A DNA stretch of 64,000 bases from an uncultured bacterium (GTDB lineage Bacteria > Babelota > Babeliae > Babelales > RVW-14): contig CAVXAT010000002.1 of assembly GCA_963759805.1 (NCBI GenBank), forward strand, positions 5,532 through 69,531, written 5' to 3'. The notes below the pieces were generated by a model. It was given only the letters and a program-made list of their open reading frames with translations. It made no database searches and had not been told where the DNA came from. Below, one piece after another: positions 16,111 to 61,355 of this stretch. The position numbers and the translations under genes are program-made. Numbering within the stretch: the stretch's first letter is position 1; each line of letters opens with the position of its first letter.

Positions 16111-18176
16111 CTACTTTTTAACTACCAGTTGATCTTGTACATGTTTAGGAACTTCTCGGTAAACTTCAAATTGCATGCTATAACTAGCTCTACCCTTTGA
16201 CAAAGATCTTAAGGTTGTTGAATAACCAAACATTTCTGCCAAAGGTACTTCTGCGGATACAACCTGAATTCCCTTCTTACTCTCCATTCCCAAAATTCTG
16301 CCTCTTCTGGAATTAAGGTCACCAATTACATCACCCATATTTTCATCCGGTGTAAAAACTTCAACCTTCATTATAGGTTCAAGAATTACAGGGGATGCTT
16401 TTGAACATCCATCTTTAAATGCCATAGATGCTGCAATTTGGAAGGCCATTTCCGAAGAGTCAACATCGTGGAATGAACCATCGAAGACGGAAGCTTTTAC
16501 GTCTACAACAGGATATCCAGCTAAGACACCAGAATTTGTGGAATCTCTAAATCCTTTTTCTATGCCGGGAATAAATTCTTTTGGAACTGAACCACCAGTG
16601 ATTTCATTCTCGAACTCAATACCAGCTCCACGCTCAAGTGGCTCAATCTTCAACCAAACGTGCCCGTATTGCCCACGTCCACCTGATTGACGAATATACT
16701 TTCCTTCAGATTCAACAGATCTTTGAATCGTTTCTTTGTAAGCAACCTGTGCTTTACCAACGTTTGTTTCAACTTTATGCTCTCTAAGCAAACGATCAAC
16801 AATAATTTCCAAATGCAACTCGCCCATTCCGGAAATAATTGTTTGATTTGTTTCTGGATTATATGTGAATCTAAAAGAAGGATCTTCTTGCATTAACTTA
16901 CGTAATGCGACACCCATTTTTTCATATTCCCCTTTACCCTTTGGCTCAATTGCCATATCAATAACAGGATCGGGAATGTAATATTTTCAAGTAAAATAGG
17001 CTTATCTTCCGCACAAAGTGTATCACCAGTCATAACGTCTTTTACACCAACTATTGCACAGATATCACCAGCTGAAACCTCTTTAATTTCTTCTCGTTTA
17101 TTTGCATGCATTTTGAGCAAACGACTTACTCGTTCAGTTTTACCCTTCGAAGCATTATAAACATATGAGCCAGACTCAAGATGCCCAGAATAAACTCGAG
17201 CAAATGTCAACGATCCAACAAATGGATCTATCATAATCTTAAATGCTAATGCACAAAACGGTTCTTTATCGCTAGTCTTTCGTTCTTCCTCTTTACCCGT
17301 ATTCGGATTAACTCCCTTAATAGAAGGAACATCTAACGGTGATGGAAGATAATCAACAACCGCATCAAGCATTAACTGCACGCCCTTATTTTTAAATGCA
17401 GAGCCACAAAACACAAGTGTAATCTCTTGAGCAATAACACCCTTATGCAACGCCGATTTAATTTCTTCAACTGAGTATGACTTGCCATCCAAATATTTTT
17501 CAGCTAGAACTTCATCAAAATCGCATGCACGTTCTACAATTTTAGTACGCATCTCCTGGATCTTGTTCTGAAATTCGGACGGTGCATCCTGCCAAGTAAT
17601 CACAGAACCTTTATCTTCTGCGCTAAATGTTGCCATCTTGCCGGTTAAAACATCAATTAGACCATAAAAATTTTCAGACTCTCCAACAGGAATCTGCATA
17701 GCAACCGGATTTCCATGCAACTTAGATCTAATTTCTCCAACAACTGAAAAATAATCTGCCCCAATTCGGTCCATCTTGTTAACAAAGGCAATTCTAGGAA
17801 CTCTGTGCTTATCTGCTTGTCGCCAAACTGTCTCAGACTGAGGCTCAACACCACCCACAGCACAAAAAACAGCAACAGCTCCATCAAGAACACGCAGCGA
17901 TCGTTCAACTTCAATTGTAAAATCTACGTGACCGGGAGTATCAATAATATTGATATGATGATCTTTCCAGAAACATGTCGTCGCAGCGGAGGTAATCGTT
18001 ATACCTCGTTCTCTTTCTTGCTCCATCCAGTCCATGGTGGCTTCGCCCTCATGAACCTCACCAATTTTGTAAGAAACACCAGTATAAAACAGTACCCGTT
18101 CTGTAACGGTAGTTTTACCGGCATCAATATGCGCCATAATTCCAATGTTTCTATACTTCGTTAAATCGTTACTCAT
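16111..18176 (-). pseudogene. fusA: Elongation factor G, interrupted by a 1-nt frameshift near 16969-16972 (fragments 16893-18176 and 16111-16956)
   Basis: N-terminal ORF: [22 protein letters not shown]. It ends ...[12 protein letters not shown]... out of frame. The second ORF resumes at [30 protein letters not shown]. On the coding strand, ACA TTC CCG ATC CTG TTA TTG ATA TGG becomes [13 protein letters not shown] if one base is added after CCG. Confidence 0.9.
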
Positions 18177-42802: not shown

Positions 42803-43387
42803 TTAAGAACGTGCAAATGTAACTAGTTTTGAATAATCTCCTTGATCTGCTAACTTCAATGCATCAATATACTGTTTTCGAATTGGTGTAGCCTTATATA
42901 AATCCTGATTTATTCCCCAACTAAAACGGGGATGTCCCAATTGCATTATAAGCAAATCAGCCATCAAGCGCGCATGTCGCCCATTCCCGTTAGGAAAGGC
43001 ATGAATCCACACTAAACGATGGTGTAATCTTACCGCAATTTCGTCATCAGAAAAAGATTTGTTCTCCAGTTGATAATTAACATCATCACAAAGTTTTTTC
43101 AACTCGACTGGAATAATAGGCCAGTCAACACCTATATTTTTCCCATAATGACGAAAGATCCCTGCCCACTTCCATGTTTCATTAAACATCTGTTTATGTA
43201 GCTGCTGAATAAAATGAACCGAAATAATATCCTTTTTTTCACGCCCCCATTTTTCGGCAGCAATAATATTTTTTTGTTCCCAAGCATTCAGTTGTTCATG
43301 AGTGGTAATATGTGTTGGGATTAAATCGGCAATTTCCTCCGGCTCGATGGGCGTAGCGCCCTCCGGATAATTAAATTTCATCATCAC
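42803..43387 (-). CDS. Fic-domain protein ('mobile mystery protein B' type)
   Basis: Fic motif HAFPNGNGRHAR (HxFx[D/E/N]GNGRxxR). It overlaps the upstream HTH gene. Confidence 0.85.
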   Translation of the reverse strand: MMMKFNYPEGATPIEPEEIADLIPTHITTHEQLNAWEQKNIIAAEKWGREKKDIISVHFIQQLHKQMFNETWKWAGIFRHYGKNIGVDWPIIPVELKKLCDDVNYQLENKSFSDDEIAVRLHHRLVWIHAFPNGNGRHARLMADLLIMQLGHPRFSWGINQDLYKATPIRKQYIDALKLADQGDYSKLVTFARS

Positions 43388-49303: not shown

Positions 49304-49332
49304 TTGACGAGCACGTTTTAATGCGCTAAATT
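49304..49332 (+). promoter_or_regulatory. Candidate sigma70-type promoter for the 49391-58372 gene string
   Basis: TTGACG (49304-49309), a 17-nt spacer, then TAAATT (49327-49332), about 60 nt upstream of the ATG. Called by eye only. Confidence 0.3.
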
Positions 49333-49390
49333 ACAAATAGATGTAAATTGTTTTTTTACAAAAACGGTTATTTATTAATAGGAGGTTATC

Positions 49391-52300
49391 ATGAAAAAGA
49401 TTTTTCATGTTTTTTCGATGTTACTGTTGTTAGGTTCGTTACAAGTTGATCTTTGCGCAATGCAGGAACCAGATGATGCAACGACTCCCGTTGAAATACC
49501 AGTAGATCATCCAAATTCCGGCCTGATAAACGGCCAGAGCATCTGTTATCTAAACGCTGTAATTCAATGTCTTTCAAATCTTAAAACTTTCAGAGAAAAA
49601 TTGTTAGCCCACGAAGACACTTATCAGAACAATCCTCTTGTTTTAAATTTAATCAGATTATTCAAAGACTTAAGAACAACCACAGAACCTGCAATACAAA
49701 ATGACACCTTGATTGGCCATGTAAAAACGTTAATCACAAATCAATCAGGAAATGCACGAGAACACTTTCAAGATGCGGATGAAATTCTAACTCTGTTGTT
49801 AGGACAAATTAACAAACCAAACAAAATTTCTTTAGAGTTACAACTTGATCAGAAAGTTAAATGCCTTGGAGCTCATGGTGCAGCCGGTTGTCAGCACGAA
49901 TCCCCAAAACATGAGACGCATGAAACAATTGCATTACCACTTGATGAAATTGCCACTCAAAATACACTTCAAGCATTGCTTGAAAGCTTTTTTACATCAT
50001 CATTCGCACATGATTATGTTTGTGATGGTTGTGGTAAAAAAAATACATCTTTTAAAACTTCTAGAATTTCAAAAAACCAAGATGAATTAATTATCACGTT
50101 AAAAAGATTCAATTCAGATGGGACCAAGATAGATACATCTATTTCATTTCCAATGGAACTCGATTTAAAGCCTTATTCAACAGATGGGCTAAAACAACAA
50201 GCCGGCGTAGATCTTTCATATGAATTAGTTGGTTTTGTTTGTCATGGCGGTAACCATTATATTTCATTTGTAAGAGATTTTGGAAATGGGGAATGGTACA
50301 TGTATAACGATTCGGCAGTCAGCGATGAAATAAATTTGCAACTTATACAAGGGATTACCACGACAGGTAGTTTTTCACTAAATTCTCAAATTTTCACACC
50401 ATACATTTTGTTTTATCAAAAAAATGGAATCGGGGGGCAAACGCTTGCTCATCCAACAGCACAACAATCTGTAGATCAAGATGAAGGCGAAGATTGGGAT
50501 TCATCAGATGGCGAGGATGAACTTCAGCCGCCAACAACTAAAGGCTTTTTTAGCTGGTTTCTTGGATGGGCTACCGGTAACAACCAAAGAGAAGACGAGC
50601 GAAGAAAACAAGAAGAGGTTAAATTGCAAGAAGAGGCGATAAAGAAACGTCAAGAGGAGAAACTAAGGATGCGAAGGGAAACTAGACTACAAGAAGAAGT
50701 GATAGAAAAACGCCAAAACCTAGGACTCATGAAAGTCGAAGCACTCCCATATTTAAATTCAGTCGTACAGTGTCTTTCGAATCTTAAAAAATTTAAGACT
50801 AAACTATTTGCAAGTGAAAATGATTATAAAGATGATTTTTTAATTCTTAGCCTTATTAATCTTATCAAAAGACTGAAGAATTCTAGCGAATCATTAGGAA
50901 ATCAAGATTTTGTAGAGCAAGCAAAGATTTTGGTGCAACAAAGTAAAAATAATGAAGTTGCACTTCAGGTGGCAGATGAATTTTTAAATTTGTTATTTGA
51001 TCGTCTGCATACCCAAGACATGGAACCTCTTAATCTCCTAATTAATATAATTACCCAGTGCATAAAAAACAAAGATATATCAGGTTGCGAATATTCTTTA
51101 GATGAAGATGGAGTTGTGCAACCCAAGACAAGCCTATGTTTTAAAGAATTAAAAAGTGTCCAAGAAATTTTGGCAAAGCAATTTTCACCTTCTTTTGATA
51201 AAGGGTACACCTGCAAATGTTGTCATAAAGCTGGAACTTCTGTTATTACACAGAAATTTTTACGCTGCCCTTCCGAATTAATAATTTCTTTACAACGATT
51301 TGATTCATCTGGAAATAAAGATTTATCGCCAGTTATTTTACCATTGATACTTGATTTGACCCCTTATCTTAGCCATGAATTACTACAACAAATCGATCAG
51401 GCTCCGTATGAATTAGTGGGCATTGTTTGTTGCAATCGAAACTCTCAATATTATTCTTACATGAAAAATATTGCATCAGATAAATGGTTCCGGTACAACG
51501 ATGAGTCCGTTGTAGAGGTCAGCAATCAAGAAATTAAAACGCTGGCAGATTCCGGAATAGATTCGCAAAATTTTGTGCCATACATTTTATTTTATGAATT
51601 AAAGGAGTCCGAATGCCATACAAGTGCATCTCAAGCGCAACAAAGTTCAACTGCAACGAAAGATCAAAGATCAAACGCTAAAAACACACAAGAAATAATG
51701 GCTCAAATGACGAAACTTTGGAATATAAAGAAGCAACAAGAACGGGACCTTAAACGTGCTCAGGGCGTTGCAAAATCGGCTGATAAAAATCTAGTTAATG
51801 CGCAGTTGGATGGAGCCGATTTAACCGATTTGGATTTGAATGGGGCAGATTTAACGGGTGCGTCTTTAATCGGTGCAACATTGGTTAGAACAAAATTGAA
51901 TGGCACAATTTTGGCCAATGCAAAGTTAAATAATGCAATTATTTCGGATGTTCAATTATGCAATGCGACACTAAAAAACACAGATTTGAATAATTCAACA
52001 ATAACGAATATAACCGCTCATAACATAACTATCTCAGATGGTACAAAATTTGAGAATGCAACAATAAGCTCGCTAAATCTAAAAAATATCAAACTACAAA
52101 ATGTGTCTTTTGCAAATGCAACATTAAAAAATATCACATTTTCAACCTCATTAATTGATCATGTAAATATGGCACACATACAAGCTGAGGAGTTATATTT
52201 AAATGAATCTTCGCTGACAAACATAGATTTCAGCAGGGCTTGCATTGTAGGTCTTGATATAAGCAATGCAAACATCATAGGAGATTGGTTAAATTTCAGA

Positions 52301-52981
52301 TATGCAACGATAAAAACGGGGTGCATTAGGGGAACAACCACATCTAGAAGACCTAGCCCTGGCGAACGCTCAGATGGCATCACAGAAAAAGAAAATACAG
52401 GACTAATAATGGATACAGTAGGCGTTTCAACACTTGTGACATCTACAGCTTTTGGTACTGTTACTATTCCTATTCCGATTGTTGGATCTGCCGCTGGATT
52501 TTTCTATGGATTGTTTTTGGTTGGAGTTGAGCTTATCATTCACGATGAATACCTCGACTCAAAAAAAGATTTTGGCGCTTCAAATATTAACAGCATTTTG
52601 CTCAATTCCGATTTTTATGGAGCATCATTACAAGACGTGATTGTGCAACATGTAAAGCTTGGTAATTGTATGAATATTGGAAGAATTAGAAAAGCAGTTG
52701 GAACCAATTTTGATAACATTGTAAGTAGCAATCCAAAGGATTTGGACGATTTAAGACACAAGGGCGCTTGTGTAAATGAAATTCCATCAGACGAATTTAA
52801 AGTACTATGGCCTACAAAAGGAAACGATCAGAAAGTTTTTTGGGTCAAGCTACTTGCTGGTGCTGCGCATGGAACCCTCTCAGGCACCATATCAAAAGTT
52901 GAGACAAATTTACGGGACAAACAACAAGAGGCAAAGTATAAGTCTTTTATATCTGAAGAAATACAAAAAACAAGAAAATAA
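49391..52981 (+). CDS. Signal-peptide protein with tandem USP/UCH (peptidase C19) deubiquitinase-like domains, pentapeptide repeats and a bilobed hydrophobic segment
   Basis: Domain 1 has the Cys box GLINGQSICYLNAVIQCL, zinc-ribbon CxxC pairs, the His box YELVGFVCHGGNHYISFV and WYMYNDSAV. Domain 2 has EALPYLNSVVQCL (Cys replaced by Pro) and YELVGIVCCNRNSQYYSY (His lost). Residues ~800-960 are A(D/N)LxX-type pentapeptide repeats. The hydrophobic hairpin is VGVSTLVTSTAFGTVTIPIPIVGSAAGFFYGLFLVGVELII. Confidence 0.85.
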   Translation: MKKIFHVFSMLLLLGSLQVDLCAMQEPDDATTPVEIPVDHPNSGLINGQSICYLNAVIQCLSNLKTFREKLLAHEDTYQNNPLVLNLIRLFKDLRTTTEPAIQNDTLIGHVKTLITNQSGNAREHFQDADEILTLLLGQINKPNKISLELQLDQKVKCLGAHGAAGCQHESPKHETHETIALPLDEIATQNTLQALLESFFTSSFAHDYVCDGCGKKNTSFKTSRISKNQDELIITLKRFNSDGTKIDTSISFPMELDLKPYSTDGLKQQAGVDLSYELVGFVCHGGNHYISFVRDFGNGEWYMYNDSAVSDEINLQLIQGITTTGSFSLNSQIFTPYILFYQKNGIGGQTLAHPTAQQSVDQDEGEDWDSSDGEDELQPPTTKGFFSWFLGWATGNNQREDERRKQEEVKLQEEAIKKRQEEKLRMRRETRLQEEVIEKRQNLGLMKVEALPYLNSVVQCLSNLKKFKTKLFASENDYKDDFLILSLINLIKRLKNSSESLGNQDFVEQAKILVQQSKNNEVALQVADEFLNLLFDRLHTQDMEPLNLLINIITQCIKNKDISGCEYSLDEDGVVQPKTSLCFKELKSVQEILAKQFSPSFDKGYTCKCCHKAGTSVITQKFLRCPSELIISLQRFDSSGNKDLSPVILPLILDLTPYLSHELLQQIDQAPYELVGIVCCNRNSQYYSYMKNIASDKWFRYNDESVVEVSNQEIKTLADSGIDSQNFVPYILFYELKESECHTSASQAQQSSTATKDQRSNAKNTQEIMAQMTKLWNIKKQQERDLKRAQGVAKSADKNLVNAQLDGADLTDLDLNGADLTGASLIGATLVRTKLNGTILANAKLNNAIISDVQLCNATLKNTDLNNSTITNITAHNITISDGTKFENATISSLNLKNIKLQNVSFANATLKNITFSTSLIDHVNMAHIQAEELYLNESSLTNIDFSRACIVGLDISNANIIGDWLNFRYATIKTGCIRGTTTSRRPSPGERSDGITEKENTGLIMDTVGVSTLVTSTAFGTVTIPIPIVGSAAGFFYGLFLVGVELIIHDEYLDSKKDFGASNINSILLNSDFYGASLQDVIVQHVKLGNCMNIGRIRKAVGTNFDNIVSSNPKDLDDLRHKGACVNEIPSDEFKVLWPTKGNDQKVFWVKLLAGAAHGTLSGTISKVETNLRDKQQEAKYKSFISEEIQKTRK

Positions 52982-53006: not shown

Positions 53007-53993
53007 ATGAAATTCAAAAATGTTTTTTCACTCATTTTAATTTTAAACGCTGCAAACTTATTTGCATATGACCAACAAACATATAAAGAACTGCTTGCTG
53101 GTGGCAAAAGGTTTGCAAATGCAGACTTGTCAAAAGCAAAAATCGAAAATATGGATTTATCAGATGTTACTTTTGTGAATGTAAATTTAACTGATGCATG
53201 CTTTCATAATTCGATGCTTACAAATGTCACATTTGATTCATGTAATTTATCGGGTTCTATATTTTATGATATGGTATTTAATAATTCCAAAATTTTAAAC
53301 AAATCTAATTTGGCACATTCTATTTTTGAAAAGGTAATTTTTGATAGCTCAGAAATAAATAATTCATCAATGGCTCATGTCAAATTGTCAGAAACTGATC
53401 TTGTGGCAGCTAGAATTTACAATGTTGACATGTACAACACCAAGCTTGAGTCTGTAAATTTTTCTGCGTGTACCCTGGAGCATATAAATTTCAGGGCAGC
53501 CAAACTCGAATTGGTAAGAATCTACGAAACAACTCAGATTGGTACTGATCTGATCTTTGATCAAGCAACTCTTTCACAGTGCTGTTTCCTAGGCCAAAAG
53601 GAACGCAGTTCAGTTATAGGGGGCGACTTTTTTGGCACGACTATTATGCATAGCTACTTTGTAAATCTAAATTTTGATAACTGTACACGCTTAGATCAAG
53701 TTGGCGATGCAACAAAAAGTTTATTCGACAATATTTCCTCTATTAGTCCAAATGACCTAAGAATATTTGCTGAAAGGCTGAAATTTAAAGAGGCAAAAGT
53801 CAATGGCGAATGGACTAAAGACAAAGACTATTGGAGTAAATTTGAATCTCATTATTGCAAGCAATTTTTTGCGGCATTGTGGCCATCAGTAGCTTATTTA
53901 GGTACTTTCGCCTTTGTTGGATTGGTTTGTCCAGCTGCTGCACCTATAGCAGCATCTGCAGTATCTGGAGGAGTATCTGCAGTAGTTAACTAA
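53007..53993 (+). CDS. Signal-peptide pentapeptide-repeat protein with a C-terminal hydrophobic tail (paralogue of the C-terminal part of 49391-52981)
   Basis: FANADLSKAKIENMDLSDVTFVNVNLTDACFHNSMLTNVTFDSCNLSGSIF... Shares FDNI(S/V)S..P.DL with the USP protein. The tail is FFAALWPSVAYLGTFAFVGLVCPAAAPIAASAVSGGVSAVVN. Confidence 0.8.
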   Translation: MKFKNVFSLILILNAANLFAYDQQTYKELLAGGKRFANADLSKAKIENMDLSDVTFVNVNLTDACFHNSMLTNVTFDSCNLSGSIFYDMVFNNSKILNKSNLAHSIFEKVIFDSSEINNSSMAHVKLSETDLVAARIYNVDMYNTKLESVNFSACTLEHINFRAAKLELVRIYETTQIGTDLIFDQATLSQCCFLGQKERSSVIGGDFFGTTIMHSYFVNLNFDNCTRLDQVGDATKSLFDNISSISPNDLRIFAERLKFKEAKVNGEWTKDKDYWSKFESHYCKQFFAALWPSVAYLGTFAFVGLVCPAAAPIAASAVSGGVSAVVN

Positions 53994-54033
53994 CTATATT
54001 AAATTTAGAATACTGAAAAATTTGGAGGTTATC

Positions 54034-57000
54034 ATGAAATTTAAAAATATTTTGATTTATCTTTTTGCTGTAGGGCAGGTTGGTTTTGCATGGGGAATGG
54101 GAAGAACACAATTTGCTAGTTCGTGTACAGAGCTCTGGTTTCAGGGAAGCAGTATACAGGACCAGGCACGTCCCACAACCTCTAGTGAATGGGGTATCAG
54201 AGTTAATTTACCTTCACGCAGCAGGTACACGAGCGAATCCTCATATTCACGGTCTAGCGGTCCTTTGAGAAAATGTTTTGCTAATTCACCAACGAAGGCT
54301 GTATTTAATTTACCTAATCTTGTGAGTTCTCATCAGTATAAAACTCTTGATAAGGCATTTAGTGCACTACTAAATTCAGACGCTACTGTGAAAGCTGTAC
54401 AAAATGACCCGAATGTTCTTGTACAATTGTATTCCGCATTGGCACAACTTCATGAGCAAATGGCTTTTCAGGATAAAAAGAACACTTTGGTTACAGATGG
54501 TACACACTGGTTTTTACAAAAACCAAATGGAAAACGGCTCGATTTAACATCAAAAGTGTCCAATGCCTCTTATGCAATAAACCAATTTGTCTATGAAATT
54601 AAAGATGAATTAGAAAGCAAAGGAATCCCTTTTGATCTTGTTTTGCGCAGCCATCGCGAATGTGTTGGTTTTTCTAAAGATGGCAAAAAAGTAATTCATC
54701 GATACTCTGGTCTCCCCGGATCCGGGCAGGAATATGTTCTTGATTTGATTGTATCCACGGAAGATGATGGATCCAAAAAGATTACTCACAAGATTAAGAA
54801 TAAAAATAAAGTAAATGATAAAAATTTACGAAAACCAAAAGATGTACAACCGCCAGCTCCCACAATTCCACATGCTCCAACTCCCACTCCAGATATCCTA
54901 TACAAGGGCGTAATTTTATCCCAACAGCCTCTCTTGATTGATACAAGTGTTGATGCACGTTGTAAAGGCACAATAAAAACTTACATGGACTCTCCTAAAT
55001 TTGCCGAAAAGGCATATTCTCTTTTTAATTCCAAAGATGCATTTAGGGGAATCCGTTTTACAGAAAATGATTTTAATTTAACAGAGAGGAGTCCTGATGG
55101 AACACTTGTCTATATTGCAGGAGCTTTAGTGGAACACGAAGATGGCACGAAAGAAGCTGGCGCTATTAGAATTGTTGTAAAACCTAATCCAGAAATGCCT
55201 GAAATAAGAGAGATACATTCTTATGTTGGAGAATTAAATAAAGATGTATCCAATGGGTTGGATGTTAATCCGCTCACTCAGGACCGACCCGGCAAAAAGG
55301 ACGATGGCGTTTCTTCTGATCCTAAAATCTCTCCCACACCTAAACACATCTTTGATATGTCAAAGCTTTTAGATTCTGATCTTAAGCAGATTGACCTACA
55401 CCATTATATGTTGAATCAATCGACAAAACAATTTGTCAGATTTAACTCTCACATTGACAGCTTACAACAGGGTAGAGGAACACAAGCCGCAGATGGTTCT
55501 ACTACAAAACCCCAGCAAGGTCCTAATACTGGTGCAGCTGGTGATAGAAAAGACAAAATAGCTCCCGAAAACGAATATACAGAAGCAGGTCAAACGCATA
55601 AAAACCTTGCGGGTCAGCATCAACTTGAAACTCAAGATCAAGATGATGAATTGCCCAAACAAGAATCCTCTCAGGCAGGGGCAGCTAATGTTGACGCCAA
55701 AGCTGCCGAAGAGGCAGCTGCAGCTAAAGCCCAAGCTGAAGCCGAAGAAACAGCCGCCAAAGCAGCTAAAGAAGAAGCCGACGCTATGGCAAAAAAAGCA
55801 GTCGATAAAAAAATAGCATCTGAAGCCTCAGCAAAGAAAACCAGAAGATCTAAAGCCATCCTAGCTCAACAAAACAAAGATATAACCCAAAAATCTCTAC
55901 ACCAAGCTGAACAAATTGAAGCATTGGTAAATAAGGGGTTCACTAAAGATCTCGCAAAAATGAAAGTATGCGCACCCAGAGAATACAGTGCATTTGTTAA
56001 ATTGAGCGATAAACAGATTTTGCAACGTGAAGAGCTATCCACAGCTAAAACAGATGTAGGGGGCACAGCTAAGCCATCCCAGCCAGTTGAAATGTCACAA
56101 CCAATCAGACTCACACTTGCAGATCGTTTTCAACAAGCAACTTCTGTTGATTCAGGAACTCAAGGAAAACAACCAGCGCTTAATTTTTCGATAGAAGATC
56201 GAAACCGTGGATTCAAAGAGCGCATAGCACGCATGCAACAACACTCAACAAGCAGATTATCAGAACAACCAAAAGCACCTGTAATACCAGAAGTACCGGT
56301 AAAACCAGTTGAAACGCCAACTCAGGCACCACAACCGCAACAACCAACATTTATAGAAAGAATTAGAGAGCGTGCTGCTGAAGTTATTGAAATGGCCAAA
56401 ATACCAGCCCTGGAAACACTCAAAACCGTTGTGACATCTGCCACAGATAATCTTTTAAAATACTTTTTTACTTCCCCTCCCACCATGGACGGAAAACATT
56501 TCTTTGGTGAAGGCCCAGAAGAGACAAGATATACTCCATATTTGGATAGGCCACTACTAAATTTGCAAAGTAAATTGCATCCAGACATGGAAATGCAAGA
56601 CTCATCACAAAATCTAGCAACTGCAGCTGCTTCTTCTGGCGAACAGGAATATCCGATTATGTTCGATCCCACAGCTCGCCCAGTAAAAATAACGCACACT
56701 GGATATTCTTCATCTAATCCTACGGAAGTAGAAAAACCCTTTGTAATGCCTCACGATGTCGGCATTGAAGGACCAACTGCAACAACACAAACTGGTCACT
56801 TAAACCTGGAACAATTTAAACGCCACACAGACTACACGGCAAAGAAAAGTGCAGAATTGGCAGAGATTACTCGTGATAACCCAACGCTGCAAAATACCTG
56901 CAAATTTGTGGATGCTCTGAATAGATTTGCTAACTTATATGCAGAGGCTGATGATGGGGTTGGAGCAACCGCTTTGGGCAAAGCCGCACAAAACACATTG

Positions 57001-58032
57001 CGCAATGCACAAAGGGCTGCGACAGCATTGGGTAGAGGTGCAATTCGAGGTGCTGAGAAATTTGATCCCAAGGTTATGTTTGTTGCCAATGCAAAACTTG
57101 CAATGTTTGCAATTGGGGAAATTAGCAGGCAAGAAACTGTCGACCAGGCCTTTTTATCTTTCAATCCTGAACAAGCTGAGCAGGCGGCTTCGGCACATGC
57201 TCAACATTGCACAGAACAGTATCAAGCATTTTCAACGGCTGCCAAACAAACTCTTGAGCGGTTAAGGAGCATGCCATGGGAAGAAGTGCTTGAAAATGGT
57301 TCTGAGCTTGGTGTTGATCTTGTTATGCAAGGTGTGTTTATTAACGGACTGGGCAAACTTGGTGGAACAGCATTGCAGCGTTTTGCTGCATTAACATCGG
57401 ATTTAAATGAAATTGTCAAAGCTGAAAAAATAGCCGCTGCCACTGGAAAGGCTTCCGCTCAAATTACAGAGCTTGGGCAACAGGTTGCTGTTGTAGGTAA
57501 ACTTACTGAACAAGAGGGATCTGAAGTAGCAGGAAGAGTTGTTGGAATTATTAAAGATAATCCCGAGCTTATCCAGAGCGAATTTGGTTTTGTACAAACT
57601 GTAAGAGCTGTATCAAAAATTGAGCAAAAGCCACATTGGGAATCGCTTGCGCTTGACCCTGCCCATGGAAATAAAATAAGTATCAAAAGTATTGAGGAAG
57701 CTTTGGCTGGAATTGCTGCTGAAGAAAAAGGATTTTTACCAGGACCTATTAGGCGCGATCCGAGCGCAGCCGCAGAATTTATTGATACATTAGGAAGAGC
57801 TTGGGATGTTAAAACTCCACTATCACTTGCTCCCAATGGGCAACATGTTTTCAAAATCGACCAGGTATTTAGTAGTATCAAACGAGAACTAGGACTTGGC
57901 GAAAATGTCATCTTGAGTATGATTAAACTTAATAAAGAGGATGCGTTGTCTTTGATTGCAAAATTAAAAACAGAATTGTCAGCAGCTGAGATCGAAAAAA
58001 TTATTACTGTTTTTAGAGAGGACTTATTTTAA
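54034..58032 (+). CDS. Large secreted polymorphic-toxin-like protein (1332 aa) with a variable C-terminal toxin region
   Basis: GGAGGTTATC precedes the ATG. Signal peptide MKFKNILIYLFAVGQVGFAWG. About 900 aa have no family I recognise. The junction segment is duplicated at 58455-58691. The C-terminal ~130 aa carry a D-x7-DVK pattern. Confidence 0.7.
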   Translation: MKFKNILIYLFAVGQVGFAWGMGRTQFASSCTELWFQGSSIQDQARPTTSSEWGIRVNLPSRSRYTSESSYSRSSGPLRKCFANSPTKAVFNLPNLVSSHQYKTLDKAFSALLNSDATVKAVQNDPNVLVQLYSALAQLHEQMAFQDKKNTLVTDGTHWFLQKPNGKRLDLTSKVSNASYAINQFVYEIKDELESKGIPFDLVLRSHRECVGFSKDGKKVIHRYSGLPGSGQEYVLDLIVSTEDDGSKKITHKIKNKNKVNDKNLRKPKDVQPPAPTIPHAPTPTPDILYKGVILSQQPLLIDTSVDARCKGTIKTYMDSPKFAEKAYSLFNSKDAFRGIRFTENDFNLTERSPDGTLVYIAGALVEHEDGTKEAGAIRIVVKPNPEMPEIREIHSYVGELNKDVSNGLDVNPLTQDRPGKKDDGVSSDPKISPTPKHIFDMSKLLDSDLKQIDLHHYMLNQSTKQFVRFNSHIDSLQQGRGTQAADGSTTKPQQGPNTGAAGDRKDKIAPENEYTEAGQTHKNLAGQHQLETQDQDDELPKQESSQAGAANVDAKAAEEAAAAKAQAEAEETAAKAAKEEADAMAKKAVDKKIASEASAKKTRRSKAILAQQNKDITQKSLHQAEQIEALVNKGFTKDLAKMKVCAPREYSAFVKLSDKQILQREELSTAKTDVGGTAKPSQPVEMSQPIRLTLADRFQQATSVDSGTQGKQPALNFSIEDRNRGFKERIARMQQHSTSRLSEQPKAPVIPEVPVKPVETPTQAPQPQQPTFIERIRERAAEVIEMAKIPALETLKTVVTSATDNLLKYFFTSPPTMDGKHFFGEGPEETRYTPYLDRPLLNLQSKLHPDMEMQDSSQNLATAAASSGEQEYPIMFDPTARPVKITHTGYSSSNPTEVEKPFVMPHDVGIEGPTATTQTGHLNLEQFKRHTDYTAKKSAELAEITRDNPTLQNTCKFVDALNRFANLYAEADDGVGATALGKAAQNTLRNAQRAATALGRGAIRGAEKFDPKVMFVANAKLAMFAIGEISRQETVDQAFLSFNPEQAEQAASAHAQHCTEQYQAFSTAAKQTLERLRSMPWEEVLENGSELGVDLVMQGVFINGLGKLGGTALQRFAALTSDLNEIVKAEKIAAATGKASAQITELGQQVAVVGKLTEQEGSEVAGRVVGIIKDNPELIQSEFGFVQTVRAVSKIEQKPHWESLALDPAHGNKISIKSIEEALAGIAAEEKGFLPGPIRRDPSAAAEFIDTLGRAWDVKTPLSLAPNGQHVFKIDQVFSSIKRELGLGENVILSMIKLNKEDALSLIAKLKTELSAAEIEKIITVFREDLF

Positions 58033-58033
58033 T

Positions 58034-58372
58034 ATGGCAAACCTGATACTGAAAAATGACAAAGTTATATGGAAGTGTTCCAACTCCATGCTGGCTCTTA
58101 TTTATGAAACAATTATGGGAATTATGAATGATAAAAAAATGAATAAAGAGTCCGCAGTTTGCAAATTTGTGGAAAAATTAAATCAGGATATCTATGGAGA
58201 TGGATGTATTTCTATTGATCTGGATGATTATCTAAAAAACAATGACGATATACTTGTTTTTGCAAAGTTATTTAAGGAATCAATAGAACAGCTTAAGAAA
58301 AAATTTGAATGGCAAGAAGAACTATATAGCCACACATTAAAATTATATCAACAGCTGACATGCCCTGATTAA
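58034..58372 (+). CDS. Candidate immunity protein for the 54034-58032 toxin (112 aa)
   Basis: It starts 2 nt after the toxin stop, is small and cytoplasmic-looking, and is followed by a terminator. The assignment is positional only. Confidence 0.5.
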   Translation: MANLILKNDKVIWKCSNSMLALIYETIMGIMNDKKMNKESAVCKFVEKLNQDIYGDGCISIDLDDYLKNNDDILVFAKLFKESIEQLKKKFEWQEELYSHTLKLYQQLTCPD

Positions 58373-58406: not shown

Positions 58407-58441
58407 GCCTCGGCATGTATAAAAGTGCTGGGGCTTTTTTG
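58407..58441 (+). terminator. Intrinsic terminator after the toxin-immunity pair
   Basis: GCCUCGGCA pairs with UGCUGGGGC (9 bp including 2 G-U pairs), with a 10-nt loop, then TTTTTT. Confidence 0.65.
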
Positions 58442-58461: not shown

Positions 58462-59688
58462 ATGGAAGGACCAACTGCAACAACGCAGACTGGTCGCTTA
58501 AACCTGGAACAATTTAAACTCCACACAGACTACACGGCAAAGAAAAGTGCAGAATTGGCAGAAATTACTCGTGATAACCCAACGCTGCAAAATGCCTGCA
58601 AATTTGTGGATGCTCTCAACAGATTTGCTAACTTGTACGCAGAGGCTGATGATGGGGTTGGAGCAAACGCTTTGGGCAAAGCCGCACGACAAACAGTGCA
58701 TTATGCCGAAAATATAACAAAAATATTTGGCGGTCACATTCAAGAAGCTCTTCTTGGCGTTTCAGATTCAGGCCTGGATCACCTTGACTTTGGAACAGAA
58801 GCTGCGTCTCATCCACAAGAAACTTTAGTAAATATGGCTAATGGCCTCAAAGAGCTTACAATTTTTACTGCAAAAATTATGGCAATAGGAGAGATGTCTC
58901 TAGATAATTCAGAATTAGCACTTGATGCATTTAATAGAGAAATTAGGCCAACGGTGCAACCATTGTACGATAGACTCGAAGCTATGACGGGACCGGAAAG
59001 AACCAGATTTATAACACGTACATTCTGTAATCTTTTTTTGGGGAAATATCTATCGATTGGCTTGCAAGCGGCATCCCTTGGTATATCTGTACCAAACATT
59101 CAGCAATTTAGGTTAGCAACTGCGGCAGCAAAAGAGTTTTATGGATCTTTGATTAATGAAGCAGAAATAGTAAGTAGAATTCCAAATTTTGCGAATTTGC
59201 CACAAAATATGCAAACTCTTTTATCTCCTCTTATATCGATGACTGAGAATCCTGGTAAGTTGGTTGAATTAGGAATCAACAAAGGCCAAGAATTTGCGAG
59301 AAGGATTGCAATAGCACTTGGGCAAAATCCAGAGTTAGTCGTTACAGAAGGCTCATTTGATGGTGCTGTGGCAAGACTTGTGGGTGATTTCGAAAAAGAA
59401 GGTGCGGCGGCAGCTGCAGCCGATGATTTGGCAAGTTTTAGAAAAAGTGAGCGTGGAGCCTCTTCAGGTACTGCTGTTCAAGCTGAGCAGAGTTATGCTA
59501 AAATGTTTGAGCAGAGAATTAGCAAGATGCCAGTGGGTGAAAGAGTTGCAGCGGTGACAGAAGAGGCTCAAAGAATAGCTGCGGCTAGAGGATGGGAAAA
59601 AATGGGTCAAATATCTAGAAGAAATGGGGAAAGAATTGTTTACAAAGATAAAAATGCATCGAAACTTTATTCTGTGGATATATACTGA
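58462..59688 (+). pseudogene. Orphan toxin cassette (5' part): no signal peptide or delivery region, begins inside the conserved junction, and is truncated by an IS insertion at 59680/59681
   Basis: The first 76 aa are nearly identical to residues ~911-986 of the main toxin. No Shine-Dalgarno is visible. The reading frame runs into the IS left end after ...NASKLYSVD. Confidence 0.8.
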
Positions 59689-60434: not shown

Positions 60435-61355
60435 GTGCGCAAGCAATGGATTGAGCACAACAACAAATTGAACTTGTCCAGAAAATGCGATCTGCTCGGT
60501 ATAAATCGAAGTAGCCTTTATTACAAGCCAAAGAAGGCCAACAACCAAGACGAGGTGATTATGGATGAGATACGCAACGAATATGAGAGACATCCATTTT
60601 ATGGATATCGAAAAATACACGAAGTTCTTATCGAAAAAAGCTTTAACCACAACATTAAAAGAACACAGCGGCTAATGACGTTGACAGGTCTTTGTGCAGT
60701 TGCCCCTTATAAAAAAACTAGCATTCCAAACAAGGAACACAAGGTGTACAAATATCTTTTAAGAGGATTACGAGTTTGCCGCCCAAACCAAGTCTGGAAA
60801 ACAGATATCACATACGTAAAAATAAGAGGTGGGTTTGTTTATTTGGTTTGTCTTATCGATGTTTTTAGTCGCAAGATTATGGGATGGGCATTGTCACCAT
60901 ATCTCGATACAGACGTTTGTCTTGAAGCATTGGAAATGGCTCTCGTACTCGGTAAGCCTGAGATTTTAAATAGTGATCAAGGGTGCCAGTTTACAAGTGA
61001 AAGATGGGTTGCTCGTTTAGAAAAAGAAGGTATCAAAATTAGTATGGATGGAATAGGTCGATGGGCAGACAACATCATTATTGAACGATTCTGGCGAACT
61101 ATTAAATATGAAGCACTGTGTTTTTATGTTCTTGAAAACATTGCTGAGACGCGATTAATTATAAAAAACTATATCAACTTTTATAATAGAGAACGCTTTC
61201 ACCAATCACTCGAATATAAAAAACCAGATGAAGTTTACTATGGAGCTATCATTGCAGTAGACCAATCTGATTTTACTTTCGAATCATTGGCTTTTGTATG
61301 TAATAGCAAAATCATCGTTCAACAAAATAAATCAATGGGGATACAAATGGCCTGA
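60435..61355 (+). CDS. IS3-family transposase OrfB (DDE/rve catalytic domain)
   Basis: WKTDITYV (D), LNSDQGCQFTS (D), NIIIERFWRTIKYE (E) and YNRERFHQSL. Confidence 0.9.
   Translation: MRKQWIEHNNKLNLSRKCDLLGINRSSLYYKPKKANNQDEVIMDEIRNEYERHPFYGYRKIHEVLIEKSFNHNIKRTQRLMTLTGLCAVAPYKKTSIPNKEHKVYKYLLRGLRVCRPNQVWKTDITYVKIRGGFVYLVCLIDVFSRKIMGWALSPYLDTDVCLEALEMALVLGKPEILNSDQGCQFTSERWVARLEKEGIKISMDGIGRWADNIIIERFWRTIKYEALCFYVLENIAETRLIIKNYINFYNRERFHQSLEYKKPDEVYYGAIIAVDQSDFTFESLAFVCNSKIIVQQNKSMGIQMA

Follow-up and report, generated by a model that had tools for sequence, protein, structure and literature searches.

What would a bacterium do with a protein that carries one apparently intact and one catalytically dead copy of a ubiquitin-specific protease (USP) domain? 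The question is raised by a gene at 49391..52981 on the + strand of the stretch of DNA analysed here (64,000 nucleotides of contig CAVXAT010000002.1 from an uncultured bacterium, below called the window). In the open reading frame (ORF) listing this gene is a single uninterrupted frame of 1196 amino acids (aa) plus stop. From N to C terminus it encodes a predicted Sec-type signal peptide, a first USP domain (D1), an acidic and coiled-coil linker, a second USP domain (D2) and a pentapeptide beta-helix with an insert of about 80 aa. The product is probably a host-directed effector of an obligate intracellular member of the Dependentiae, in which an active D1 is combined with a dead, constrained D2 and a beta-helix. 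An earlier note on this DNA had proposed a host-membrane-anchored effector that edits ubiquitin; the host-directed role fits the organism, whereas the membrane hairpin proposed as its anchor is not supported. The parts of the gene, with the evidence for each (AF2, AlphaFold2 model), are as follows.

49391..52981, + strand: complete USP gene (ORF listing; 100% identical protein P0001)
49391..49459, + strand: putative Sec-type signal peptide, aa 1-23 (hydropathy heuristic; conserved in homologs)
49508..50428, + strand: USP domain D1, aa 40-346, predicted active (Pfam UCH; PDB hits; catalytic columns)
50429..50710, + strand: inter-domain linker, aa 347-440, acidic low-complexity sequence, then a Glu/Arg/Lys-rich helix at aa ~398-442 (sequence; AF2)
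50711..51610, + strand: USP domain D2, aa 441-740, catalytically dead (Pfam UCH; identity to D1; catalytic columns)
51611..51778, + strand: second linker, aa 741-796, Gln/Ser-rich, then a helix capping the beta-helix (sequence; AF2 helix, model residues 2-23)
51779..52336, + strand: beta-helix block 1, aa 797-982, ~9 coils, ~31-36 pentapeptides (Pfam; AF2; Foldseek)
52337..52582, + strand: variable insert, aa 983-1064, with a hydrophobic stretch at aa 1006-1050 (52406-52540) (AF2; hydropathy)
52583..52795, + strand: beta-helix block 2 and C-terminal cap, aa 1065-1135, motif FDNI..NP.DL...GA.VN (AF2; motif)
52796..52978, + strand: low-confidence helical tail at the C-terminus, aa 1136-1196, without a CaaX box (AF2)

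An intact USP domain

We compared the protein with Pfam and found that it matches PF00443 (UCH, the C19/USP family) in two stretches (E=2e-60). Taken alone, each domain aligned to profile positions 2-254 of 254 and exceeded the cutoff of 23.9 bits: D1 (aa 39-348) scored 126.9 bits (E=1.4e-36) and D2 (aa 441-745) 101.1 bits (E=1e-28). The two C19 domains suggested by the earlier note were thereby both recovered at full profile length. A phmmer search of PDB sequences with D1 and D2 returned USP46, USP12, USP36, Ubp8 and USP2.

In a hidden Markov model built from 15 bacterial USP domains, D1 agrees with the consensus at all catalytic columns: the oxyanion residue N47, the nucleophile C52 (49544-49546), H289 (50255-50257) and D307 (50309-50311). 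It also has H285, the gatekeeper Y290 and E131; in canonical USPs, Glu at the latter position binds Arg72 of ubiquitin (PMC10719079). The motifs lie where the earlier note had placed them, with the Cys box GLINGQSICYLNAVIQCL at aa 44-61, the His box YELVGFVCHGGNHY at aa 277-290 and YNDS at aa 305-308, and its claim that D1 bears all the C19 signatures is supported by the complete set of catalytic columns. Four Cys residues of a zinc ribbon (C158/C167/C211/C214) fall in conserved Cys columns. The description of this ribbon as two CxxC pairs needs correction, as in D1 and D2 alike the first pair has the spacing Cx8C (C158/C167 and C557/C566, respectively) and only the second is CxxC (C211/C214 and C608/C611). 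Since all catalytic columns and the four ribbon Cys are present, D1 is a canonical USP with Fingers, unlike the fingerless bacterial USP TssM, and is predicted to be an active deubiquitinase (DUB). It would use C52, H289 and D307 to strip ubiquitin from host or bacterium-associated substrates.

A catalytically dead duplicate

The catalytic residues required of an active C19 member are absent from D2. The oxyanion Asn is replaced by K448, the nucleophilic Cys by P453, the catalytic His by Q686 and the first His of the His box by C681, and the Asp of the QQD motif by Val; the counterpart of the Cys box is EALPYLNSVVQCL (aa 450-462) and that of the His box VCCNRNSQYY (aa 679-688). The Cys-to-Pro change and the loss of the His-box His had both been read correctly in the earlier note. 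D2 retains E530, Y687, D704, W699 and the zinc-binding Cys C557/C566/C608/C611, and of the 43 columns with a conservation of 70% or more among 178 USP domains it keeps 30; the 13 in which it differs include all the chemistry. The view of D2 as a second USP copy that follows a Glu/Arg/Lys coiled coil and preserves the fold signatures therefore agrees with both the profile match and the column count. The loss is concentrated on catalytic positions, and the fold core, the zinc ribbon, the Arg72-binding Glu and the aromatic gatekeeper are kept.

Aligned over the full length of D2, the two domains share 35% identity (E=6e-56), whereas either domain is only ~20-30% identical to eukaryotic and viral USPs, which indicates that D2 is an internal duplicate of D1. 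The ortholog P0002 shares 49% identity with the window protein overall and has the same K, P and Q substitutions, with Leu in place of the first His of the His box. As these three changes are identical in two lineages that are only 49% identical, the inactivation is old and was then retained. D2 is most likely a non-catalytic ubiquitin-binding or regulatory "reader", which would present chains or substrates to D1.

Relatives and selection across modules

A word-index protein search found five relatives, including P0002, P0003, P0004 and P0005. P0002 (Logan run SRR8925765; locus L001) has the full architecture, P0003 and P0004 come from two Candidatus (Ca.) Babeliales metagenome-assembled genomes (MAGs), and P0005 has a single USP domain with pentapeptide repeats, D2 being absent. 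In a Babeliales MAG lineage (L002 8001..11469; also L003, L005 and L006), a deletion of ~350 nucleotides (nt) removed the palm and His-box half of D2. It split the gene into a 700-aa ORF, with the signal peptide, D1 and half of D2, and a 430-aa pentapeptide ORF without a signal peptide. Both halves are still under strong purifying selection (ratio of nonsynonymous to synonymous divergence, dN/dS, 0.12-0.28). A metagenome scan with D2 recovered only this truncated lineage (L005, L006), so the complete tandem is known from two genomes. A scan of GTDB species representatives with a pattern from the five-sequence alignment gave 89 matches, none of which was confirmed; the source genome and its near relations are thus absent from that set.

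We then compared the modules of the window protein with L001, where dS is saturated and dN was used to rank them, and with the ortholog in L002, where dS is 0.45-1.4.

Beta-helix: dN 0.23 against L001; dN/dS against L002 0.12 in block 1 (83% identity) and 0.14 in block 2 (89% identity)
D1: dN 0.30; dN/dS 0.28
D2: dN 0.36; dN/dS 0.18 for the N-terminal half
C-terminus: dN 0.37; dN/dS 0.72 for the C-terminal tail (48% identity)
Insert: dN 0.53; dN/dS 0.50 (36% identity)
Linkers: dN 0.74-0.95

The beta-helix is the most constrained module, and the dead D2 is at least as constrained as the live D1. The insert is the least constrained internal region in the L002 comparison. The inter-domain linker, modelled by AF2 as a long helix at a per-residue confidence (pLDDT) of 60-73, has a dN of 0.95 against L001.

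A wider family was revealed by an exhaustive HMMER search with D1, which returned 7056 proteins at E<=1e-3. Signal-peptide-like N-termini occur in 41 of the 150 best USP cluster representatives, and those bearing them whose source is named come from Ca. Dependentiae or Ca. Babeliales. The Dependentiae would thus hold a large radiation of exported USPs, none of them characterised and their architectures undescribed. The USP plus pentapeptide architecture recurs in four of the best 150 representatives; P0005, P0033 and P0053 are relatives of this kind. P0024 (Ca. Babeliales, MBY0353144.1) contains another active-plus-dead tandem, in which GNTCFLN/GGHYYAY is followed by GNTRFLN/GGEYRAY. The P0024 tandem, whose second domain has Arg for the Cys and Glu for the His, arose independently.

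P0040, P0084 and P0141 are signal-peptide proteins with two or three apparently active USP domains (three in P0040). Further multi-USP hits (P0010, P0012-17, P0020-22, P0025, P0028-29) were rejected as analogues, as the inspected copies keep the Cys; judged by eye from sequence, they are eukaryote-like and apparently arrays of tandem USP genes merged into one model. Two bacterial-type proteins of the family end in CaaX-like boxes (CCIL in P0053, CIVM in P0018), and the window protein has no such box. These ends hint at host prenylation as an alternative means of membrane targeting in the USP effector family.

The beta-helix and its insert

Across the whole protein, the pentapeptide families PF00805, PF13599 and PF13576 scored above their cutoffs. 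The repeats are in register, ~31 in block 1 (aa 801-967) and ~5 in block 2; the pentapeptide-repeat C-terminal third described in the earlier note thus stands, with the number of repeats raised from ~30 to ~36. AF2 modelled them as one continuous right-handed quadrilateral beta-helix with a pLDDT of >90 in block 1 and 81-90 in block 2. Foldseek matched this structure to Qnr, MfpA, AlbG and NleL, the last also matched by sequence (PDB 3sqv, 3naw). The FDNI..NP.DL...GA.VN motif is common to block 2, to P0005 and to the product of the next gene (ORF2, below). By analogy with NleL, SopA and PipB2, the beta-helix is probably a targeting or partner-binding scaffold.

The insert interrupts the beta-helix within a loop. 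The earlier note had seen here a two-lobed hydrophobic stretch of ~45 aa resembling the membrane hairpins of chlamydial Inc proteins. We found instead an insert of ~80 aa in which only aa 1026-1050 are marginally transmembrane-like. In a Kyte-Doolittle plot (window 19), aa 1020-1052 peaked at 1.89, whereas the Ser/Thr-rich aa 1010-1028 reached only 1.41, below threshold. A crude sum on the Hessa scale placed only aa 1026-1050 over a lenient threshold (+2.7), a value comparable to that of the family's signal peptides. The insert contains a GxxxGxxxG motif (G1032/G1036/G1040), and AF2 gave it a pLDDT of 21-30 with one 12-residue helix. Its counterpart in P0002 is Gly/Ala/Val-rich, and the aligned segment in L002 is polar or amphipathic, with no hydrophobic window. 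Pfam searches with the insert and with the C-terminal tail gave no match.

Organism and export

All of the best named relatives of the CTP synthase encoded in the window are from Ca. Dependentiae or Ca. Babeliales (62-73% identity), which places the genome in the Dependentiae. The same 226,291-bp NCBI/ENA contig encodes P0001 and a 100% match to this CTP synthase. By its genes, the organism belongs to the Dependentiae (TM6/Babelota), has a diderm envelope and depends obligately on a host; a MAG is all that represents it.

The N-terminus of the window protein reads, on a hydropathy heuristic, as MKK, a hydrophobic core of 14 residues and then DLCA/M. A23 and M24 are invariant across five homologs, and an [IL]xA/M ending is also found in more distant USP-pentapeptide proteins. 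A lipoprotein signal was ruled out by the missing lipobox and the lack of conservation of the Cys. The protein was called secreted in the earlier note, and the conserved Sec-type N-terminus agrees with this.

In the Dependentiae, effectors are exported via Sec and type II secretion (PMC4378268, PMC4776705, PMC6561590). The type II secretion system (T2SS) is core in TM6 (PMC4776705) and is the only secretion system reported in Babela (PMC4378268); 44% of the coding sequences of Chromulinavorax have signal peptides (PMC6561590), and the USP-type TssM is itself T2SS-secreted (PMC10719079). Type III secretion is reportedly lacking in the phylum (PMC4378268). The signal peptide would carry the window protein across the inner membrane, and the phylum's T2SS, or vesicles, would then release it; this route is suggested by the biology of the phylum. 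From the eukaryote-specific substrate, ubiquitin, together with the lifestyle of the phylum (PMC4378268, PMC6561590), we infer delivery into the host cell.

A three-gene cassette with a toxin-like locus

The USP gene heads a tight cassette of three genes, separated by gaps of 25 and 28 nt.

53007..53993, + strand: ORF2, 328 aa, with a signal peptide, a pentapeptide beta-helix and a hydrophobic C-terminal tail of ~40 aa (Pfam; paralogy to the USP C-terminal module)
54022..58032, + strand: ORF3, 1336 aa, with a signal peptide, a conserved body and a variable C-terminus of ~130 aa (comparison with L002)
58407..58434, + strand: strong terminator-like hairpin with a 10-bp stem, 6 GC pairs and a T-run, closing the putative operon

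In the window and in L001, L002 and L003 alike, the gene that directly follows the USP gene is ORF2 or its counterpart. The tail of ORF2 is conserved, rich in small residues and tail-anchor-like, and ORF2 may be a membrane-anchoring partner. The order of all three genes is kept in L002 and L003. In L001, the gene after the pentapeptide paralog is partial and begins with a similar signal peptide. In L004, the third gene is represented by orphan fragments, with small ORFs after each of them.

ORF3 looks, from its sequence, like a polymorphic toxin. It is 30% identical to its homolog in L002 (12482..16571) over a body of ~575 aa, and the last ~130 aa are unrelated; the L002 version ends in a PF09000 Cytotoxic domain (colicin E3 rRNase-type, 29 bits). 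A search of PDB sequences with the C-terminus of ORF3 gave no match. One nt after ORF3 is an ORF of 112 aa (58034..58372), in the position expected for an immunity gene. Further downstream, the ORF at 58462..59688 (+) is an orphan arm, an alternative C-terminus. Over its first 240 nt it shares 94% identity with nt 2737-2974 of ORF3; the rest is 48% identical in amino acids to the arm found in L002 and breaks off within the Cytotoxic-type domain. An rve-family (IS3-like) transposase (60435..61355, +) just downstream of this orphan module marks the 3′ side of the cassette as variable. The GC content is 0.35 across 50-54 kb and ~0.39 elsewhere.

Alternative explanations

D2 might be an inert spacer or a decaying relic of the duplication, which would leave a single-USP effector with no ubiquitin binding or regulation by D2. 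Such a relic would account for the lost catalytic residues, for the deletion of the C-terminal half of D2 in the lineage of L002, L003, L005 and L006, and for the single-USP pentapeptide relatives P0005, P0033 and P0053. It fits poorly with the constraint on D2, which is far more conserved than the linkers and similar to D1 in dN (0.36 against 0.30) and dN/dS (0.18 against 0.28), and with the K, P and Q substitutions shared by two lineages only 49% identical overall. The concentration of the losses on catalytic positions, leaving the Arg72-binding Glu, the gatekeeper Tyr and all four zinc Cys, and the second, independent active-plus-dead tandem in P0024 also argue against decay, and we consider a relic unlikely. 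Several points nevertheless weigh against the effector with a functional D2 that we favour. A full D2 is dispensable in relatives, being half-deleted in L002, L003, L005 and L006 and absent from the P0005 lineage. AlphaFold modelling of aa 25-760 from a six-sequence alignment reached a pLDDT of only 38.5, so that neither a D1-D2 interface nor ubiquitin binding by D2 finds structural support. The signal-peptide and transmembrane calls are simple hydropathy heuristics. Babela grows in a vacuole (PMC4378268), whose membrane a Sec/T2SS substrate would also have to cross. Enzymatic activity, specificity for ubiquitin, export and localisation in the host are all predictions.

The remaining alternatives concern where the protein acts and on what. 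Were the insert a genuine two-helix membrane hairpin, it would anchor the protein in the vacuole or host membrane, and the many hydrophobic and small residues of aa 1006-1050 together with their Pro-rich turn and GxxxGxxxG, the Gly/Ala/Val-rich counterpart in P0002, the conserved hydrophobic tail of the paralog ORF2, the hydrophobic regions of the Simkania USPs (PMC10643670) and the two CaaX-like ends, which suggest membrane targeting in the family, could all be cited for it. However, only aa 1026-1050 come near a transmembrane segment (Kyte-Doolittle 1.89, Hessa +2.7), no better than the signal peptides; the model has a pLDDT of 21-30 and one 12-residue helix; and the region is the least conserved internally and not hydrophobic in L002. 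Strongly hydrophobic segments in a Sec substrate would, moreover, arrest it in the bacterial inner membrane, and the Dependentiae have no type III secretion (PMC4378268). We find a hairpin anchor quite unlikely. The Inc-like bilobed version was rejected, given one marginal, unconserved segment, a Sec rather than a type III signal, and no route to an Inc topology in a phylum reported with only Sec and T2SS (PMC4378268, PMC4776705). At most, the insert has a lineage-specific role in peripheral membrane association or as a glycine zipper. Alternatively, the enzyme could act on a bacterial or co-secreted substrate, for instance by processing or protecting the toxin-like ORF3, or on another ubiquitin-like modifier. 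Linkage to the toxin-like locus is conserved, ORF3 homologs or fragments having been confirmed for the window as well as for L002/L003 and L004. Among USP folds, specificity for ISG15 or SUMO also occurs, as in USP18 and USPL1. There is also a precedent in Chlamydia, whose Cdu1 keeps effectors of the bacterium itself from being degraded (PMC10942603). Against a bacterial substrate, no E1, E2 or ubiquitin-like genes were noticed in the cassette or among the ~25 profiled ORFs of the window, and inspection of ORF3 by eye showed neither a ubiquitin-like domain nor a conserved Gly-Gly junction. D1 also keeps the Glu that binds ubiquitin Arg72 and the gatekeeper of the Gly-Gly (PMC10719079), and such a substrate seems to us very improbable.

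Comparison with known systems

Secreted bacterial USPs are a known kind of protein, with precedents in Babela, Simkania and TssM. To our knowledge, bacterial USP-type DUBs were thought to be near-absent until 2023. The earlier note had named TssM as the bacterial example; three secreted C19 hydrolases were reported in Babela massiliensis by Pagnier et al. in 2015 (PMC4378268) and the active canonical USPs SnUSP1-3, with hydrophobic regions, in Simkania in 2023 (Nat Commun; PMC10643670), so that TssM is not the only precedent. SnUSP1-3 are close in kind: like the window protein, they are large, canonical full-length USPs of an amoeba-associated intracellular bacterium, with the catalytic residues, the aromatic gatekeeper and hydrophobic regions, the latter proposed for membrane attachment (PMC10643670). 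Each, however, contains just one USP domain, lacks both a dead duplicate and a beta-helix, and belongs to Chlamydiota with type III secretion; their activity was shown experimentally, whereas that of D1 is predicted only. The Babela C19 proteins match ours in phylum and protease family; they have a signal peptide, as is predicted here, and T2SS is the only secretion system reported in Babela. They were listed from annotation and could be compared by description only, with no tandem dead USP or pentapeptide fusion described; the same paper notes inactivated peptidase domains in an expanded Ulp1-like effector family (PMC4378268). TssM, described as fingerless and T2SS-secreted by Hermanns et al. 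2023 (PMC10719079), is a bacterial USP-type DUB effector with a Sec/T2SS-type export route, as is predicted for the window protein. It has, in contrast, no Fingers, a "Littlefinger" loop, an Ig-like N-terminal domain, no second USP and no pentapeptide repeats, while D1 and D2 both have a Fingers zinc ribbon of four Cys.

The window protein has in common with E. coli NleL and with Salmonella SopA and PipB2 that an enzyme of the ubiquitin system is joined to a right-handed quadrilateral beta-helix, or works together with one. PipB2 is a pentapeptide beta-helix effector; NleL and SopA, unlike the window protein, pair an N-terminal helix with a HECT-like E3 ligase and are type III substrates. Two DUB-fold domains are combined in one effector in Legionella LotA, where both are active OTUs. 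Catalytically dead USP folds are retained for binding in the eukaryotic USP39/Sad1, which was among our PDB sequence hits, and in PAN2, though these are not fused to an active USP. To the chlamydial Inc proteins the likeness is a ~45-aa hydrophobic stretch in a putative effector of a vacuolar bacterium; the stretch here is not bilobed by hydropathy, is not conserved and sits within a beta-helix loop of a protein with a predicted Sec signal peptide and no type III signal, in a phylum reported to lack type III secretion. In the literature searched, which did not cover subscription journals, we found no prior description of an active-USP plus dead-USP tandem in cis, of a USP-pentapeptide beta-helix fusion or of a USP linked to a polymorphic-toxin-like locus.

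A bacterial USP in itself is no longer surprising, and the pseudo-USP tandem is what a specialist in DUBs or effectors would test. A conserved dead domain fused to a live one is a natural test of what USP-fold pseudoenzymes do, be it ubiquitin reading, allostery or scaffolding. One speculation, which we rate as rather improbable, is a "reader-eraser" device in which D2 is a ubiquitin receptor that gives D1 selectivity for chains or substrates, evolved at least twice in the Dependentiae (in this clade and in P0024); with the beta-helix and the tail-anchored ORF2, the enzyme might shield the co-secreted polymorphic toxin or the bacterial compartment from host ubiquitination. If true, it would be the first cis-fused pair of USP and pseudo-USP, and a DUB would for the first time be tied functionally to a polymorphic-toxin locus. 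The linkage to a pentapeptide paralog and a toxin-like locus may also inform how bacteria with only Sec and T2SS deliver and protect their effectors.

Gene start and neighbouring genes

Two candidate signals precede the USP gene.

49304..49332, + strand: TTGACG-17-TAAATT, a sigma-70-like promoter match in the 424 bp that separate the divergent grpE and USP genes (consensus match only)
49380..49385, + strand: Shine-Dalgarno sequence AGGAGG, 5 nt before the ATG (read from sequence)

Sigma-70-like consensus matches of this kind were not enriched over shuffled sequences. The flanking genes are bacterial (grpE, a pssA-like transferase, htrA, ftsJ/tlyA, acs, yidC, lptD, rseP, pyrG, tuf and fusA), and, together with the Shine-Dalgarno sequence and the operon structure, they rule out eukaryotic contamination. 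A recent viral origin was ruled out as well, as viral contigs yielded only distant giant-virus USPs: 38 giant-virus contigs (L007-L044, IMG/VR MAGs) encode USP domains 20-34% identical to D1, none of them close. USPs are thus common in viruses that also infect protists.

Two further observations concern other genes of the window. The elongation factor G gene fusA (16111..18176, -) is seemingly split into two overlapping ORFs, of which 16893..18176 (-) aligns with positions 6-403 of the 691 of EF-G, while the other part would be 16111..16956; the split amounts to a frameshift, which is due to an assembly error or marks a pseudogene. A 194-aa ORF at 42803..43387 (-) contains a Fic/DOC domain (PF02661, E=1.5e-11) and could be a further host-directed or toxin-type enzyme.

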